Shown: positions 31,315 to 34,658, numbered from the stretch's first letter. The stretch: DNA of 64,000 bases from Candidatus Nealsonbacteria bacterium (GCA_047456315.1 CP179889.1:320776-384775); one strand, 5' to 3'. Numbers and translations: made by a program. The notes: generated from the sequence alone by a model not told the origin.

Positions 31315-31343
31315 TTAACCTTTTTAGAGAATATGGCTATTTT
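31315..31343 (+). repeat. intergenic box1 copy 1 (promoter-like TTAACC-17 nt-TATTTT)
   Basis: CCTTTTTAGAGAATATGGCTATTTTGAGA is near-identical to the copy at 34630-34658. Confidence 0.6.
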
Positions 31344-31365
31344 GAGACAAAACAAGAAAAAAATA

Positions 31366-31386
31366 GAAGAATTAATTGAGAAATAA
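31366..31386 (+). repeat. intergenic box2 copy 1 (GAAGAATTAATTGAGAAATAA)
   Basis: Contains the perfect palindrome AATTAATT. Recurs at 33816 and 34395. Confidence 0.7.
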
Positions 31387-31421
31387 ATCTATAAAAAGAG
31401 TTATATAAAATAAATAATTAT

Positions 31422-32732
31422 ATGAATGACCAACAAATTACATGCCCTAAGTGTCAGCATAAGTTTCCTCTTTCAGAGACATTTTCTAGGCAAATTAAAG
31501 AAAGTTTGAAAAATGAGCTTGCTGCTGAAAATAAGAAAAAAGAGAATGAGTTAAATGAAAAACTTAGAATTTTTAAGGTTAAACAAAAAGAAGAAAATGA
31601 AAATATAGAAAAAGAAAAGAAAAAATTACGAGAGAAGAGCGAGTCTATTGATAGGAAGGTTGAGAAGAAATTAAAAGAACAAAGAAAAAATATTTTAGAA
31701 TCTGCTAAGAAAGAAGCTGAAAAGAAAATTAAAAAAGAAACTGATTTACAATTAAAAGACTTGCAAACACAAAACGAAGAAAAAGATAAAGAATTAGAAT
31801 TAGCAAGAAAAAACGAATTAGATTTGAGAAAAAAAACAAGAGAGATAGAAAAACGAGAGAAGAATTTTGAACTTGAGATGCAAAGAAAAATGGACAAGGA
31901 ACGAGAAAAATTAATTAATCAAATTAAAAAAGATGAGCAGGAAGAAAGCAGAAGAAAGATGTTAGAGAAAGATAAGCAGATAAATCAAATGAGGAAAACA
32001 ATAGAAGAGTTAAAAAGGAAGAGTGAACAAGGTTCAACTCAAATACAAGGAGACGCACAAGAGGAAGATTTAAAAAGTATTTTAAAAAATAAATTTCCTA
32101 TTGATGCGGTTGAAGATGTTCCTACGGGGATTAAAGGTGCCGATATTATTCAAACTGTAAATACAAATTCAGGAGAAAATTCTGGAATTATATTATGGGA
32201 ATCAAAAAATACAAAAAAGTGGAGTAATGATTGGATAAAAAAACTTAAAGAAGATCAGGGAATTGTACGAGCAGACGTTTGTATATTAGCTTCTAGAGTT
32301 TTACCGGAGGGGATTAAAAATTTCGATTTTATTAATGGAGTTTGGGTATGTAATTATCACTTTGCTTTATCACTTGCTTCTGTCCTTAGATTACACTTAT
32401 TGGAAGTCGGTAAAGTAAAAAGATCGCTTATTGGAAAAGATGAAAAGATGGAAGTATTATATAAATATTTAACTGGAAGCCAATTTAAAAATAGAATAGA
32501 AAATATTGTGATAGCATTTACTGAAATGAAAGGAGGGTTGGACTCAGAAAAAAGAGCTATACAAAGAATTTGGAGTAAAAGAGAAAAAGAAATTGAGAAA
32601 GTTATAGAGAATACTAGCGGGATGTATGGCGATTTACAGGGTATAGTAGGCAGATCTGCATTGTCTAAAGTTAAAATTTTAGAATTACCAGAAGCACAGG
32701 AGCCAGAATTAGAAGTTGAAGATAAAAATTAA
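31422..32732 (+). CDS. DUF2130-like protein: N-terminal Zn-ribbon, long K/E coiled coil, C-terminal PD-(D/E)XK-like domain
   Basis: ITCPKCQHKF, then ~200 aa of charged heptads, then GADIIQTV-(x)-ILWESKNTKKW (a D...ESK nuclease-like motif). Confidence 0.6.
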   Translation: MNDQQITCPKCQHKFPLSETFSRQIKESLKNELAAENKKKENELNEKLRIFKVKQKEENENIEKEKKKLREKSESIDRKVEKKLKEQRKNILESAKKEAEKKIKKETDLQLKDLQTQNEEKDKELELARKNELDLRKKTREIEKREKNFELEMQRKMDKEREKLINQIKKDEQEESRRKMLEKDKQINQMRKTIEELKRKSEQGSTQIQGDAQEEDLKSILKNKFPIDAVEDVPTGIKGADIIQTVNTNSGENSGIILWESKNTKKWSNDWIKKLKEDQGIVRADVCILASRVLPEGIKNFDFINGVWVCNYHFALSLASVLRLHLLEVGKVKRSLIGKDEKMEVLYKYLTGSQFKNRIENIVIAFTEMKGGLDSEKRAIQRIWSKREKEIEKVIENTSGMYGDLQGIVGRSALSKVKILELPEAQEPELEVEDKN

Positions 32733-32756
32733 AATTAATTAAAAAGATAAAAAACT

Positions 32757-32918
32757 ATGGCAAAAGTAAAAGTTAAAGATGAAAAATCATCAAAAGAAGC
32801 CAAAGAAAAATTGCAAGGAACAGTTGATTTTCGAAAAACAAAACGTGGCGTAATTGTCGCAAAACAGAATGGCCAATTAAGAGGAAAAAATCAAGGAAAA
32901 ATAAAAATTACAAGTTAA
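32757..32918 (+). CDS. small basic ORF (53 aa), hypothetical
   Basis: ATG 32757 to TAA 32916-32918: MAKVKVKDEKSSKEAKEKLQGTVDFRKTKRGVIVAKQNGQLRGKNQGKIKITS. Below the ORF-track length cutoff; fills an otherwise empty 200-nt gap. Confidence 0.3.
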   Translation: MAKVKVKDEKSSKEAKEKLQGTVDFRKTKRGVIVAKQNGQLRGKNQGKIKITS

Positions 32919-32935
32919 AAATCAAAAAATTCTAA

Positions 32936-33697
32936 ATGAGTATGGAATTTAAACAATCAACAATCGGCGACCTTATCGAAAGCGAACGAAAAATGGTGCT
33001 TACGGGAGCGGAACGCTACGGCGAGTATTTTATTAACGCGTCGGAATTCAATGCCCTTTTGAATAATTTTGTAAAATCAATTGATGATCCAAACAAGTTC
33101 ATATTTGTGGCTTTTCTTTCGCAAGTGAGAAAACATCATACACTTGCCTTGTTTTCGTCCGTTCGACTTCATCACATTCAAACGGGATTGAATTTACGGC
33201 AAGTCCTTGAAGCTGGAGCTTGGGCGGCATATGCAATGGCTCACAAAAACAAAGACAAGTTTTGCGAGGCCGATACAAATAACATTCTTAATATTCCCAA
33301 GAGACTACAAACAGCGAGAAATAACTGGCTTAATCAGAATTTCAAAATCAAATCGGACGAAATAAAAAGACTGAAGGAACTTATCAATAAATCGGTAGCT
33401 CATGCAAACATCGTATACGCTCTTCAGAATTTTGAGATGATGCCAGCCGGTGATCCAGGATTTTATACACCATTCTTTGATTTTAATGACGAGTATAAAG
33501 TCAAAAATGATCTGTGGTTTATTGCCAATACCGCATTGGGACTAATAGATTTGTTTTATGGAGTAAATCAACAATATAAAGTTTTTCAATTGGTTGATGA
33601 TTTTAATGCAAGATTTAAACAGTTAGTAGATCATAACAACAAGCTTAAATTAGAAATGATGGAGCATCCACGTTTTAAAAAACATGTCAAAAGATGA
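32936..33697 (+). CDS. hypothetical soluble protein (orphan, 253 aa)
   Basis: Long ORF, visibly more GC-rich than its neighbours, and probably helical from its composition. No motif I can assign. Confidence 0.6.
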   Translation: MSMEFKQSTIGDLIESERKMVLTGAERYGEYFINASEFNALLNNFVKSIDDPNKFIFVAFLSQVRKHHTLALFSSVRLHHIQTGLNLRQVLEAGAWAAYAMAHKNKDKFCEADTNNILNIPKRLQTARNNWLNQNFKIKSDEIKRLKELINKSVAHANIVYALQNFEMMPAGDPGFYTPFFDFNDEYKVKNDLWFIANTALGLIDLFYGVNQQYKVFQLVDDFNARFKQLVDHNNKLKLEMMEHPRFKKHVKR

Positions 33698-33815
33698 TTT
33701 TTGGGATTTAACTAATAGGCCGTATACCAGACTAAAATTTAGAATTAAAAAGAATAAAAAGTAAATAAAAGCCTATCACTGAACATTTTTATTTATGTAA
33801 AACTAAAAAAAAGTC

Positions 33816-33836
33816 GAAGAATTAATTGAGAAAACA
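33816..33836 (+). repeat. intergenic box2 copy 2 (GAAGAATTAATTGAGAAAACA)
   Basis: Shares AAGTCGA(A/G)GAATTAATTGAGAAA with copy 3. Ends 6 nt before ATG 33842. Confidence 0.7.
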
Positions 33837-33841
33837 AGTTT

Positions 33842-34330
33842 ATGAATTGCGTGTTATTAATTGCACTTCTGTCATTGATTTCTGCGTGGTTTGTTCCTTT
33901 TTTTATTGATTGGTGGAAATCCAGACCAAGAGTAGATTTTGGATTATTAAGAAGTGGTAGTATTGCCGACATGGTAAGAATTAGTAGAGAATCAGTAACG
34001 CCTATTACTTTTAGATTCGAAAATAAGACTAAAAAAAGATTAAAAGATTTGTATTTTGATATACAAATTTGGAGACCTCTATCTTTATCAAACAGTAATC
34101 GTGCTTTACAACTTTTTACGGGTGAATTAGGAAGAACATTGGTTGTTAGACGCGATACTGAAGTTTTTCACATCAGACACATTATTGAACTAGCTCCAAA
34201 CGAGAAAAGAGATATATCTATTGAGCTTAACAGTAAGCACAATCAGTCAGATATCTATCCTATTGACATAACATTTTCTTCGCCCGAACTTGAATCTAAA
34301 TTTAAAGTATTAAAGATTGAAATTGTCTAA
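33842..34330 (+). CDS. hypothetical N-terminally membrane-anchored protein (orphan, 162 aa)
   Basis: N-terminal helix NCVLLIALLSLISAWFVPFFIDWW followed by a probably beta-rich ~130-aa domain. Confidence 0.55.
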   Translation: MNCVLLIALLSLISAWFVPFFIDWWKSRPRVDFGLLRSGSIADMVRISRESVTPITFRFENKTKKRLKDLYFDIQIWRPLSLSNSNRALQLFTGELGRTLVVRRDTEVFHIRHIIELAPNEKRDISIELNSKHNQSDIYPIDITFSSPELESKFKVLKIEIV

Positions 34331-34394
34331 AATCCTTTTTATAGAAAATGTCATATCATAAGCATATTAGCCATCAAAAATAAAATAAGAAGTC

Positions 34395-34415
34395 GAGGAA
34401 TTAATTGAGAAATAA
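34395..34415 (+). repeat. intergenic box2 copy 3 (GAGGAATTAATTGAGAAATAA)
   Basis: Same motif as the copies at 31366 and 33816. Preceded at 34334 by a degenerate box1 (CCTTTTTATAGAAAATG). Confidence 0.7.
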
Positions 34416-34434
34416 ATTTTGAGATTATAATTTT

Positions 34435-34590
34435 ATGGCAAATATATTAATAGGCATTATAGTAGCTATAGTATTATTCTTAATTTTCCGTGCTTATGTG
34501 CTTTGGTATTGGAAAGTTGACGAAATCATTAAATTGTTAAAGGAAATCTCTAATAATCTAAAAGGGGAATCAAAAGAAAAAAAGGAATAA
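34435..34590 (+). CDS. small single-TM ORF (51 aa), hypothetical
   Basis: MANILIGIIVAIVLFLIFRAYVLWYWKVDEIIKLLKEISNNLKGESKEKKE. Below the ORF-track cutoff. Confidence 0.35.
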   Translation: MANILIGIIVAIVLFLIFRAYVLWYWKVDEIIKLLKEISNNLKGESKEKKE

Positions 34591-34629
34591 TCATCGCAAA
34601 AAGCTCATTATTGAGCATTTTGATTCTCA

Positions 34630-34658
34630 TTGACCTTTTTAAAGAATAGGGCTATTTT
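34630..34658 (+). repeat. intergenic box1 copy 2 (promoter-like TTGACC-17 nt-TATTTT)
   Basis: TTGACCTTTTTAAAGAATAGGGCTATTTTGAAA, 34 nt upstream of the OLD-family gene start. Confidence 0.6.

Follow-up and report, generated by a model that had tools for sequence, protein, structure and literature searches.

Serial integration at the 3′ ends of genes, as at tRNA and tmRNA genes or at icd with prophage e14, leaves tandem displaced copies of the gene end, and the conserved C-terminal helix region of hsdS is known as a recombination substrate in type I restriction-modification systems. In T4-type phages, conserved intergenic cassettes termed PeSL extend from stop codon to start codon in hyperplastic regions of the genome (Arbiol et al. 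2010, PMC2839356; Comeau et al. 2014, PMC4122927), and homologous recombination between these cassettes inserts, deletes and replaces small accessory genes (PMC2839356, PMC4122927). Here we describe an element for which PeSL is the closest functional analogue. It resides in a 64,000-nt stretch of a Candidatus Nealsonbacteria genome (GCA_047456315.1, CP179889.1:320776-384775; the whole stretch is referred to as the window), where an 18-nt sequence, box2, and a longer segment, box1, recur in the intergenic (IG) regions of an island of accessory genes. Box2 is the leftover 3′ tail of an hsdS gene. We consider it probable, if far from certain, that the boxes are the junction modules of a co-oriented gene-cassette array lying behind a LexA-linked restriction-modification operon, and that these modules serve gene turnover by recombination.

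Box2 (GARGAATTAATTGAGAAA) is found at window positions 31366-31383, 33816-33833 and 34395-34412, on the + strand in every case. These copies, reported in a first-pass annotation of the same DNA, are the only exact ones in the 64 kb, and all three lie within one 3.3-kb stretch (Table 1). When up to three mismatches are allowed, a single extra site appears, within the DUF2130 gene, with 0.99 expected from shuffled sequences. The copies and their flanks align over 22-40 nt, and copies 2 and 3 also have AAGTC in common directly upstream, an extension that the annotation had likewise recognized. The gaps between box2 and the following start codon are 38, 8 and 22 nt for copies 1, 2 and 3, values that replace the 36, 6 and 21 nt given previously. 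A DNA-uptake-like motif distributed over the genome was considered and rejected, as the three copies are confined to 3.3 kb of the 64 kb.

Read in frame as GAA GAA TTA ATT GAG AAA, box2 encodes EELIEK, or K(I/V)EELIEK when its lead-in is included. A TAA codon directly follows copies 1 and 3, and a stop codon lies two codons upstream of copies 2 and 3. Copy 1, which reads ...NKKKIEELIEK*, ends a 17-codon, ATG-started mini-ORF (open reading frame; 31333-31386) that is in frame with the stop codon of the preceding restriction endonuclease gene. The frame of that TdeIII-type endonuclease remains open past its TAA for 34 further codons, NLKVTQQSCFPLTFLENMAILRQNKKKIEELIEK*, running through both box1 and box2 (31279-31386); we estimate the random chance of such an open frame at about 6%.

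Sequence continuity with a bona fide hsdS 3′ end is found in a Doudnabacteria locus (L038; related loci are cited by L number), in which the box2 DNA forms the genuine 3′ terminus of a 460-aa ORF containing two Methylase_S stretches (E = 1.4e-15) and located behind a LexA gene and an HsdM-like methylase gene. Other loci retain progressively less of this gene. In L054, 69 codons are left, with 70% identity to the L038 HsdS, and the tail in L022 agrees with L038 at 22 of 27 residues, far past the 7 codons (21 nt) that were fixed by the search. Between 15 and 20 tail codons are recognizable in L037, L011, L043 and L006, with tails of the L022 type reaching up to 26, in the form KAKELLEQAKQKVEELIEK, and the remaining loci hold 8-14. 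Copies 2 and 3 of the window are remnants of the short type, whereas copy 1 may keep about 16 hsdS tail codons (AILRQNKKKIEELIEK versus ELLEQAKQKVEELIEK), a resemblance that beyond the last 8 codons is not significant alone. Because the series is graded from an intact gene to 8-codon stubs, with remnants of 54 down to 8 codons on other CPR (candidate phyla radiation) contigs, the parsimonious direction of change is from hsdS tail to module. No Methylase_S domain was detected by Pfam in the window island. Box1 was also considered as part of an hsdS remnant (FPLTFLENMAIL versus "IPLPPLEEQ"), and this candidate was rejected when an end-anchored comparison gave no similarity beyond about 15 codons.

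The module recurs widely outside the window. A scan of GTDB, with one genome per species, using RTMGARGAATTAATTGAGAAA returned 55 loci. About 39 of the matches lie inside long ORFs of unrelated taxa and represent ordinary coding occurrences of the peptide; a separate class of about 17 occurs on low-GC contigs, mostly labelled Patescibacteria (Nealsonbacteria, Parcubacteria, Saccharibacteria and Doudnabacteria), where the motif closes a short frame and an ATG follows a few bases on. The loci of the family were chosen by an exact box2 match, so that only their flanks, their extra copies and their breakpoints are unbiased. The extra copies, which were not picked by the exact pattern, differ from box2 only in the first ~5 bases; the remainder, AATTAATTGAGAAATAA followed by 4-8 nt and ATG, does not vary, with 7 nt as the most frequent distance to the start codon. 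Variable spacing to the start codon had previously been offered as an argument for cassettes, and that argument lapses, given that the distance is almost fixed at 7-8 nt across the family.

The architecture of the window island is reproduced, with non-orthologous restriction-modification genes, in a complete Nealsonbacteria genome (L032). There, box2 lies 12 nt behind the genes for a fusion of LexA with a DNA methyltransferase (MTase) and for a restriction endonuclease, and it is succeeded by an array of co-oriented, unrelated small genes, whose 26-55-nt spacers each consist of box2, in the form (AAAGTC)GAAGAATTAATTGAGAAATAAAATT-ATG, or of a second motif, boxX, ending at the start codon. The array in L047 contains a homologue of the window's GIY-YIG-like protein (54% aa identity), and also an OLD-like ATPase and a Cas4-like PD-(D/E)XK protein, these two of the same Pfam families as in the window. 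BoxX (AATAATCAAAATTTAGCCCGAAGTTGAGGAAA..ATG) is itself a conserved module that fills the 26-50-nt gap before many co-oriented small genes of the candidate phyla radiation (CPR); it was observed in L032 (minus strand), L011, L043, L009, L047 (e.g., 7286-7303), L021, L026, L037 and 24 of the loci L166-L245, where it either takes turns with box2 or is joined to it, and where shared blocks likewise end at it.

In metagenomes, the 24-nt core AATTAATTGAGAAATAAAATTATG (AATTAATTGAGAAATAAAATT-ATG) is present exactly in at least 120 contigs, 80 of which were fetched (412 kb, L166-L245) and provide the counts that follow. Not one of the 84 exact core copies ends an intact hsdS; the open frame that terminates in the module spans 4-46 codons in 78 of them (median about 13), and the tail piece AAAAGTCGAA adjoins the core in 36. 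The 71 downstream proteins of at least 30 aa fall into 59 clusters. At up to two mismatches there are 129 core copies, together with 37 copies of boxX, and in all 43 contigs that contain at least two modules the modules are on one strand, the densest array being that of L207 (7 copies in 5.6 kb). Co-oriented arrays of unrelated genes split by the module are seen in L207 and L242 as well as in L032, L047 and the window. The genes that the core precedes are very diverse, and many contigs carry several copies. In the 2.9 million viral contigs of IMG/VR the core has no match and boxX has one, and a phage origin was rejected on these counts.

Alignment of related arrays reveals breakpoints of homology at the modules. 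The closest available relative of any window cassette, L163, encodes a homologue of the 162-aa protein with 86% aa identity, and its DNA aligns (87%) only to window positions 33818-34441, a stretch that begins within box2 copy 2, covers the gene and the whole of IG-C, and ends 4-6 nt past the ATG that follows box2 copy 3. The neighbouring genes in L163, for an Mrr-like endonuclease and a different small protein, are unrelated to the 253-aa and 51-aa genes that flank this segment in the window. Three metagenomic pairs (L189/L197, L176/L241 and L220/L237) have cassette starts that are identical at 74-75 of 75 nt behind an identical core, and the DNA upstream of the core is unrelated (5-18 of 30 positions identical). 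The shared block stops at the 3′ end of the next boxX in L189/L197 and inside boxX in L176/L241 (318 nt, 98%), and L185 and L195 have a conserved boxX in common, with different DNA on either side of it. When shared blocks were defined over all contig pairs by at least 88% identity and at least 150 nt, 17 of 64 internal block ends fell within 15 nt of a module, compared with a mean of 1.4 and a maximum of 6 for random positions. As a separate observation, the box2 that precedes the 162-aa gene in L163 is split by a 21-nt insertion (L163:588-609; GTCGAGGAATTAAT|ccttcaataaattcaggataa|ATTGAGAAATAAATTTTATG).

The cassette-boundary reading put forward in the first-pass annotation is supported by these sequence comparisons, both by the synteny with L163, which begins about 55 nt upstream of box2 copy 2 and reaches the ATG that follows copy 3, and by the module-bounded blocks elsewhere. 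Box2 would then represent the last 8 to about 26 codons of hsdS plus the stop codon and a short stop-to-start spacer, a piece of hsdS turned into a constant adaptor directly 5′ of the start codons of unrelated accessory and defence genes in many CPR lineages. Genes would be inserted, replaced or deleted by recombination within these short conserved modules, the likeliest route being homologous or short-homology recombination, whether among module copies in cis or with DNA that the cell has taken up, and each event would leave one more copy of the module. The three box2 copies of the window would be the joints between the DUF2130-53aa-253aa block, the 162-aa gene and the 51-aa gene.

Several points weigh against this interpretation. 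The left edge of the L163 block, where similarity is weaker, lies about 55 nt upstream of box2 copy 2 rather than at box2. A viable break has to fall outside genes, where the spacers consist mostly of modules; measured against intergenic DNA only, the excess of breakpoints would by a rough estimate be about 2-fold. Identity inside the module arises partly by construction, because of the way the loci were chosen. No recombination event has been directly observed, and RecA-type recombination usually needs more homology than 24-40 nt. The 3′ part of the module is strongly conserved, which points to some function. Finally, the place of box1 in a cassette scheme would have to be derived from the window, where both of its copies are found.

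The resemblance to PeSL encompasses several features. In both cases the motif spans the interval from a stop codon to the next start codon between small accessory ORFs in variable regions, the breakpoints of insertions, deletions and replacements between relatives fall in the motifs, and individual copies are subclasses of one set of parts or mosaics of them. The PeSL composite comprises a strong sigma-70 promoter and a terminator stem-loop. A comparable layout of predicted terminator and promoter is formed in IG-D by a hairpin followed by the sigma-70-like box1, whereas IG-A has only the promoter-like part and box2 has neither. The elements described here are chromosomal, on CPR-type contigs and between core-gene flanks, unlike PeSL, which reside in T4-type phages and form mini-circles. 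Moreover, box2 derives from coding sequence, the hsdS tail, and contains no recognizable promoter or stem-loop.

Integrons, including chromosomal arrays whose attC sites are nearly identical, such as the VCR arrays of Vibrio, likewise consist of co-oriented, mostly single-gene and apparently promoterless cassettes that are divided by a recurring separator and attached to a fixed platform. However, neither intI nor any other recombinase gene was found in the island or in the 10 flanking genes scanned (Pfam, PADLOC). An integron attC site of 57-141 nt carries R''-L''/L'-R' repeats and folds, but the box2 module of 24-40 nt has no such repeats or stable fold, no GTTRRRY/RYYYAAC pair was seen on inspection, and the module abuts the next start codon. 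In hsdS shufflons and domain swapping, the same region of hsdS is involved, and the islands studied here are also linked to restriction-modification genes; unlike those systems, the repeats do not enclose target-recognition segments, the copies are direct rather than inverted, no invertase is adjacent, and what is exchanged is whole unrelated genes downstream of the tail rather than specificity domains. The likeness to integrons and shufflons drawn in the first-pass annotation does not hold for want of a recombinase in the island or the flanking genes scanned, of an attC-like fold and of hsdS recognition segments, and in view of the direct orientation of the repeats. Displaced 3′-end copies left by serial integration provide a further parallel, since they too place the ends of a target gene as direct repeats between inserts, although here the inserts are single genes without an integrase and the parent hsdS is gone from the window.

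We weighed the proposal that the box2 core and boxX are att-like sites for a recombinase encoded elsewhere (Xer or unknown), which would excise and integrate single-gene circles in the manner of integrons or dif modules. A 24-nt core that is very sharply conserved over many lineages and contexts, breakpoints that recur at its 5′ edge, and the strict co-orientation of module copies would all suit a site-specific reaction, as would a GC-rich hairpin of 24-45 nt that is inserted between GTCGAA and GAATTAATT, the boundary of the core, at one identical position in 12 of the 84 copies. The proposal is nonetheless unlikely, given the lack of a recombinase gene among those surveyed in the window, the absence of an attC-like fold or of a clear 11-6-11 dyad on inspection, and a crossover position that varies from the left edge of the core in L189/L197 to the ATG after the leader in the window and L163. 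All module copies are direct, unlike in pdif modules, which are bounded by 28-bp XerC-spacer-XerD sites in inverse orientation; by inspection only, the arms around TGAGAA match at 5 of 8 positions as an inverted repeat, in DNA that is AT-rich. The hairpin occurs in L185 (minus strand, about 40 nt before the core), L189, L208, L210, L214, L173 and L047, its insertion point coincides with several homology breakpoints, and it might represent either a small inserted element or an added terminator. As a candidate structured RNA or attC site, box2 was rejected, because IG-A, IG-B and IG-C fold no better than shuffled sequences (z = -0.10, +1.77 and +0.73) and an Rfam scan of the window returned rRNA and tRNA only.

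A different possibility is that the module is in the first place an expression element, whether a selected 5′ leader, a translation-start region or a factor binding site, with recombination as a by-product. The 3′ part of the module and its distance to the ATG are what remain constant in the extra copies, where mismatches are restricted to the first ~5 bases, and the region is AT-rich and less structured than shuffled sequences (IG-B, z = +1.77). Leaders may also matter for translation in this genome, in which the 16S rRNA gene (9588-11126) ends in ...GTGGATCACTACATTTTAAAA (GGATCACTACATTTT) with no CCTCC anti-Shine-Dalgarno sequence (11080-11140), and almost none of the ~60 window genes has a Shine-Dalgarno site. 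Yet the core genes of the window lack the module, its own three copies stand at quite different distances from the ATG, the module has no sigma-70 geometry, and selection for an AT-rich leader does not itself explain identical 24-35-mers before 59 unrelated families. An origin in expression thus seems rather unlikely to us. Under the cassette reading, the AT-rich, unstructured box2 leader would allow translation to begin in a genome that lacks Shine-Dalgarno pairing. Two specific candidates were rejected here: box2 as a Shine-Dalgarno site, because of the 16S and gene sequences just mentioned, and box2 as a sigma-70 promoter, because on inspection TTGAGA lacks a consistently spaced -10 element and TAAAAT is only 1 nt away from the ATG, a distance too short even for a leaderless start.

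Box1 is a repeat of another kind. Its 29-mer, for which shuffled sequences give an expectation of 0.00, starts at 31319 and 34634, and the similarity reaches 41 nt at 85% identity (31305-31345 versus 34620-34660). The pair announced in the first-pass annotation is consequently real, whereas the starts assigned to it, 31315 and 34630, are those of the -35-like hexamers. A degenerate third copy near 34334 is weak: by mismatch count (9 in 27 positions, with 15 window sites at least as good) it is at chance level, and by local alignment it is marginal, with p of about 0.02 against IG-A and about 0.10 against IG-D. The L163 orthologue has a small hairpin, TTCCTC TTT GAGGAA, at this place. Copy D overlaps the palindrome CTATTTTGAAAATAG at 34652-34666. 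The exact 27-mer of box1 has no match in the metagenome contigs, and fuzzy searches (up to 6 mismatches) and blastn-short against the collected relative loci gave chance-level matches only. The nearest homologues of the genes behind box1 are distant (68% for OLD, 59% for DUF2130), with unrelated upstream DNA. From these comparisons box1 would seem to be a genome-private, local segment. As direct repeats, its two copies flank the whole 3.3-kb segment that begins with box2 copy 1 and ends with the hairpin behind the 51-aa gene, an arrangement that a single-crossover insertion at a box1 site would leave; box1 is probably a separate segment of 41 nt whose duplication came about in the way proposed for box2.

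The likelihood that the spacers contain nothing but chance or low-complexity AT-rich similarity is negligible. The window has a G+C content of about 32% and A-rich intergenic runs are common, and the supposed third box1 copy and a marginal segment designated box0 are at or near chance. For box2 and the box1 pair, however, the chance explanation is already refuted by three exact 18-mers that extend to 22-24 nt, by the 41-nt pair that shuffling does not reproduce, and by hundreds of homologous box2 copies elsewhere.

Another idea is that of a shared regulon, with box1 as promoter and box2 as operator for the LexA-like or another helix-turn-helix (HTH) protein. Both box1 copies have acceptable sigma-70 geometry, as previously described (TTAACC or TTGACC, 17 nt, TATTTT), and a LexA-like gene heads the window island as well as the analogous islands of L032, L038 and L160. 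Such promoter-like matches, however, are not enriched in the region (39 found versus 48 expected). The palindrome within box2, AATTAATT, is indeed perfect, but it is the sole dyad in box2, 8 bp of AT with no half-site structure, and box2 has no fixed position relative to box1 or to any promoter. Neither box occurs in the promoter region of the LexA-like gene (28433-28603), whose only strong dyad, ATCAACGAGTTGAT, is without counterpart in IG-A to IG-D, and across the family the spacers measure only 26-55 nt, with box2 directly at the start codon and no space left for a promoter. The LexA-operator alternative therefore finds no backing, and common control of the island genes through the two boxes is quite improbable; the regulatory reading is not supported, except possibly for box1. 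Because this genome uses canonical promoters (TTGACA-16-TAAAAT 6 nt before the LexA-like ATG and TTGACA-17-TATAAT before 43598), a promoter role for box1 is reasonable, and box1 is plausibly a sigma-70 promoter that would be preceded, in IG-D, by a terminator-like hairpin. As for ATCAACGAGTTGAT itself, this perfect 14-bp palindrome at 28549-28562, 8 nt upstream of the LexA-like -35 element and unique in the window at zero mismatches, is a candidate autoregulatory operator.

Returning to the junctions, MAFFT alignment suggests that the four intergenic regions may be mosaics of a few common segments, with box0 in IG-B and IG-D, box1 in IG-A and IG-D and perhaps IG-C, box2 in IG-A, IG-B and IG-C, and a boxX fragment. 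Only IG-A truly holds box1 and box2 together, so that the earlier description of a repeated two-part module was overstated. IG-D is the only one of the four whose fold surpasses shuffled sequences (z = -2.07). The features of the region are compiled in Table 1.

Table 1. Coordinates of island genes, intergenic regions and sequence elements in the window
Feature	Position	Strand	Basis or remarks
GIY-YIG-like	28115-28432	-	ORF list, Pfam/PADLOC
LexA-like HTH/S24 protein	28604-29254	+	Pfam/PADLOC; island head
N4/N6 DNA methyltransferase	29304-30500	+	Pfam/PADLOC; island head
TdeIII-type restriction endonuclease	30502-31281	+	Pfam/PADLOC; island head
IG-A (intergenic)	31282-31421		
Box1 copy A	31305-31347	+	TTAACC 31315-31320, 17-nt spacer, TATTTT 31338-31343
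Box2 copy 1 with A-rich lead-in and TAA	31349-31386	+	38-nt leader to DUF2130 ATG
Cassette block 1 (DUF2130, 53-aa, 253-aa)	31422-33697	+	Box2 copies 1 and 2 as bounds
DUF2130 gene	31422-32732	+	Pfam; cassette block 1
53-aa ORF	32757-32918	+	ORF list; cassette block 1
253-aa ORF	32936-33697	+	ORF list; cassette block 1
IG-B (intergenic)	33698-33841		
BoxX fragment CTAAAATTTAG	33732-33742	+	IG-B; 11-nt match only, weak
Box0-like segment AAAAGCCTATCACTGAACATTTTTATT	33767-33793	+	IG-B; 21/27 identical to IG-D hairpin segment, p ~0.03, marginal
Box2 copy 2: AAGTC + GAAGAATTAATTGAGAAA	33811-33841	+	8-nt leader to 162-aa ATG; reads KKVEELIEK
Cassette 2: 162-aa membrane-anchored protein	33842-34330	+	ORF list; homologues P0122-P0127
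IG-C (intergenic)	34331-34434		
Weak box1-like stretch	34334-34360	+	Directly after 162-aa stop; not established as box1 copy
Box2 copy 3: AAGTC + GAGGAATTAATTGAGAAA + TAA	34390-34434	+	22-nt leader to 51-aa ATG
Cassette 3: 51-aa hydrophobic protein	34435-34590	+	ORF list
IG-D (intergenic, before OLD gene)	34591-34691		
Terminator-like hairpin GCTCA-TTAT-TGAGC then ATTTT	34603-34616	+	IG-D
Box1 copy D	34620-34662	+	TTGACC 34630-34635, 17-nt spacer, TATTTT 34653-34658
Cassette 4: OLD-family ATPase-TOPRIM nuclease	34692-36491	+	Pfam, PADLOC; 100% identical to a Candidatus Nealsonbacteria protein
Cas4-like PD-(D/E)XK protein	36654-37445	+	Pfam/PADLOC

The island, annotated with Pfam and PADLOC for 11 island proteins and 10 flanking proteins, is set between core genes, with a Mur ligase and FemAB on the left and Ham1, NUDIX and FtsQ on the right, followed on that side by PMT, CorA and HrcA. 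A head of LexA and restriction-modification genes also precedes the module-punctuated arrays of L032 and L038, and L160 has such a head before an array with different repeated motifs. Proteins combining a LexA-like HTH domain with an S24 peptidase recur at island heads (in the window, at L032:5737-7191 and L160:3629-5134, both on the minus strand, and at L038:415-1092), where they adjoin a DNA methyltransferase or are fused with one (fusions of 484 and 501 aa). This LexA-methyltransferase pairing suggests control of restriction-modification through a self-cleaving repressor.

The OLD and 162-aa cassette genes regularly keep company with type I restriction-modification loci. The nearest OLD homologues (L152-L155, L158/L159 and L156) are directly 3′ of HsdR, beside HsdM-HsdS-HsdR or beside an MmeI-type enzyme; homologues of the 162-aa protein adjoin a LexA-MTase fusion in L160/L161, and in L165 a 67% homologue directly precedes a gene whose N-terminus, judged by eye, looks like that of HsdS. 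L160/L161 represent a more distant lineage, with a 67% homologue of the 162-aa gene, a LexA-MTase fusion and a small-gene array that has repeated intergenic motifs of its own (L160:6192-11766): cctaagaaattaaaattgtgga; cggctaaccccc..ttagccgtttgaaataaRattATG; and aaaccaaatttATG. Repeated junction sequences may thus be general to LexA-MTase-linked arrays, box2 being one lineage-spanning version.

Other features of the window were recorded in passing. Several promoters are so near the ATG that the genes look leaderless, among them the promoter at 28570-28597 before 28604 and that before 43598. The rRNA operon (9588-18788) is interrupted, with protein ORFs and tRNA-Ile/Ala between 16S and 23S, and the 23S match spans 3879 nt compared with a 2925-nt model. 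The ~950 nt of insertions, with ORFs inside or over them (e.g., 17427-18110), look like intron or homing-endonuclease content; split rRNA operons and long 23S insertions have been reported for CPR bacteria. A 300-nt direct repeat (99%; 48398-48697 and 54710-55009) covers the upstream region and first ~230 nt of the ORFs at 48464-49675 and 54776-56164, near tRNA-Lys (48194-48265), and a 47-nt repeat (94%) is present at 54505-54551 and 57396-57442.

In literature on CPR integrons, Patescibacteria LexA, hsdS remnants and CPR intergenic motifs, we found no description of these modules. It is tentatively conceivable that CPR bacteria, or Patescibacteria, have a previously undescribed, widespread cassette system in which the hsdS-tail core and boxX act as universal joints for capturing, shuffling and expressing single defence and accessory genes behind LexA-linked restriction-modification operons; a dedicated recombinase might be dispensable, or an unknown enzyme might act where the core begins on its 5′ side. 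The genomes of CPR bacteria are tiny, uptake of DNA is assumed for these organisms, and to our knowledge few mobile elements have been described in them. Were such a system to exist, it would be the counterpart of integrons in ultra-small genomes. A short, sequence-defined module that precedes dozens of unrelated genes and coincides with homology breakpoints gives a handle on the turnover of defence genes in CPR bacteria. It is also a case of coding sequence, the tail of hsdS, put to new use as a non-coding adaptor. The module predicts module-bounded presence/absence polymorphisms and possibly excised circles. For annotation, it explains many tiny "...EELIEK" pseudo-ORFs, and it can be used as a search key for accessory and defence cassettes in CPR metagenomes.

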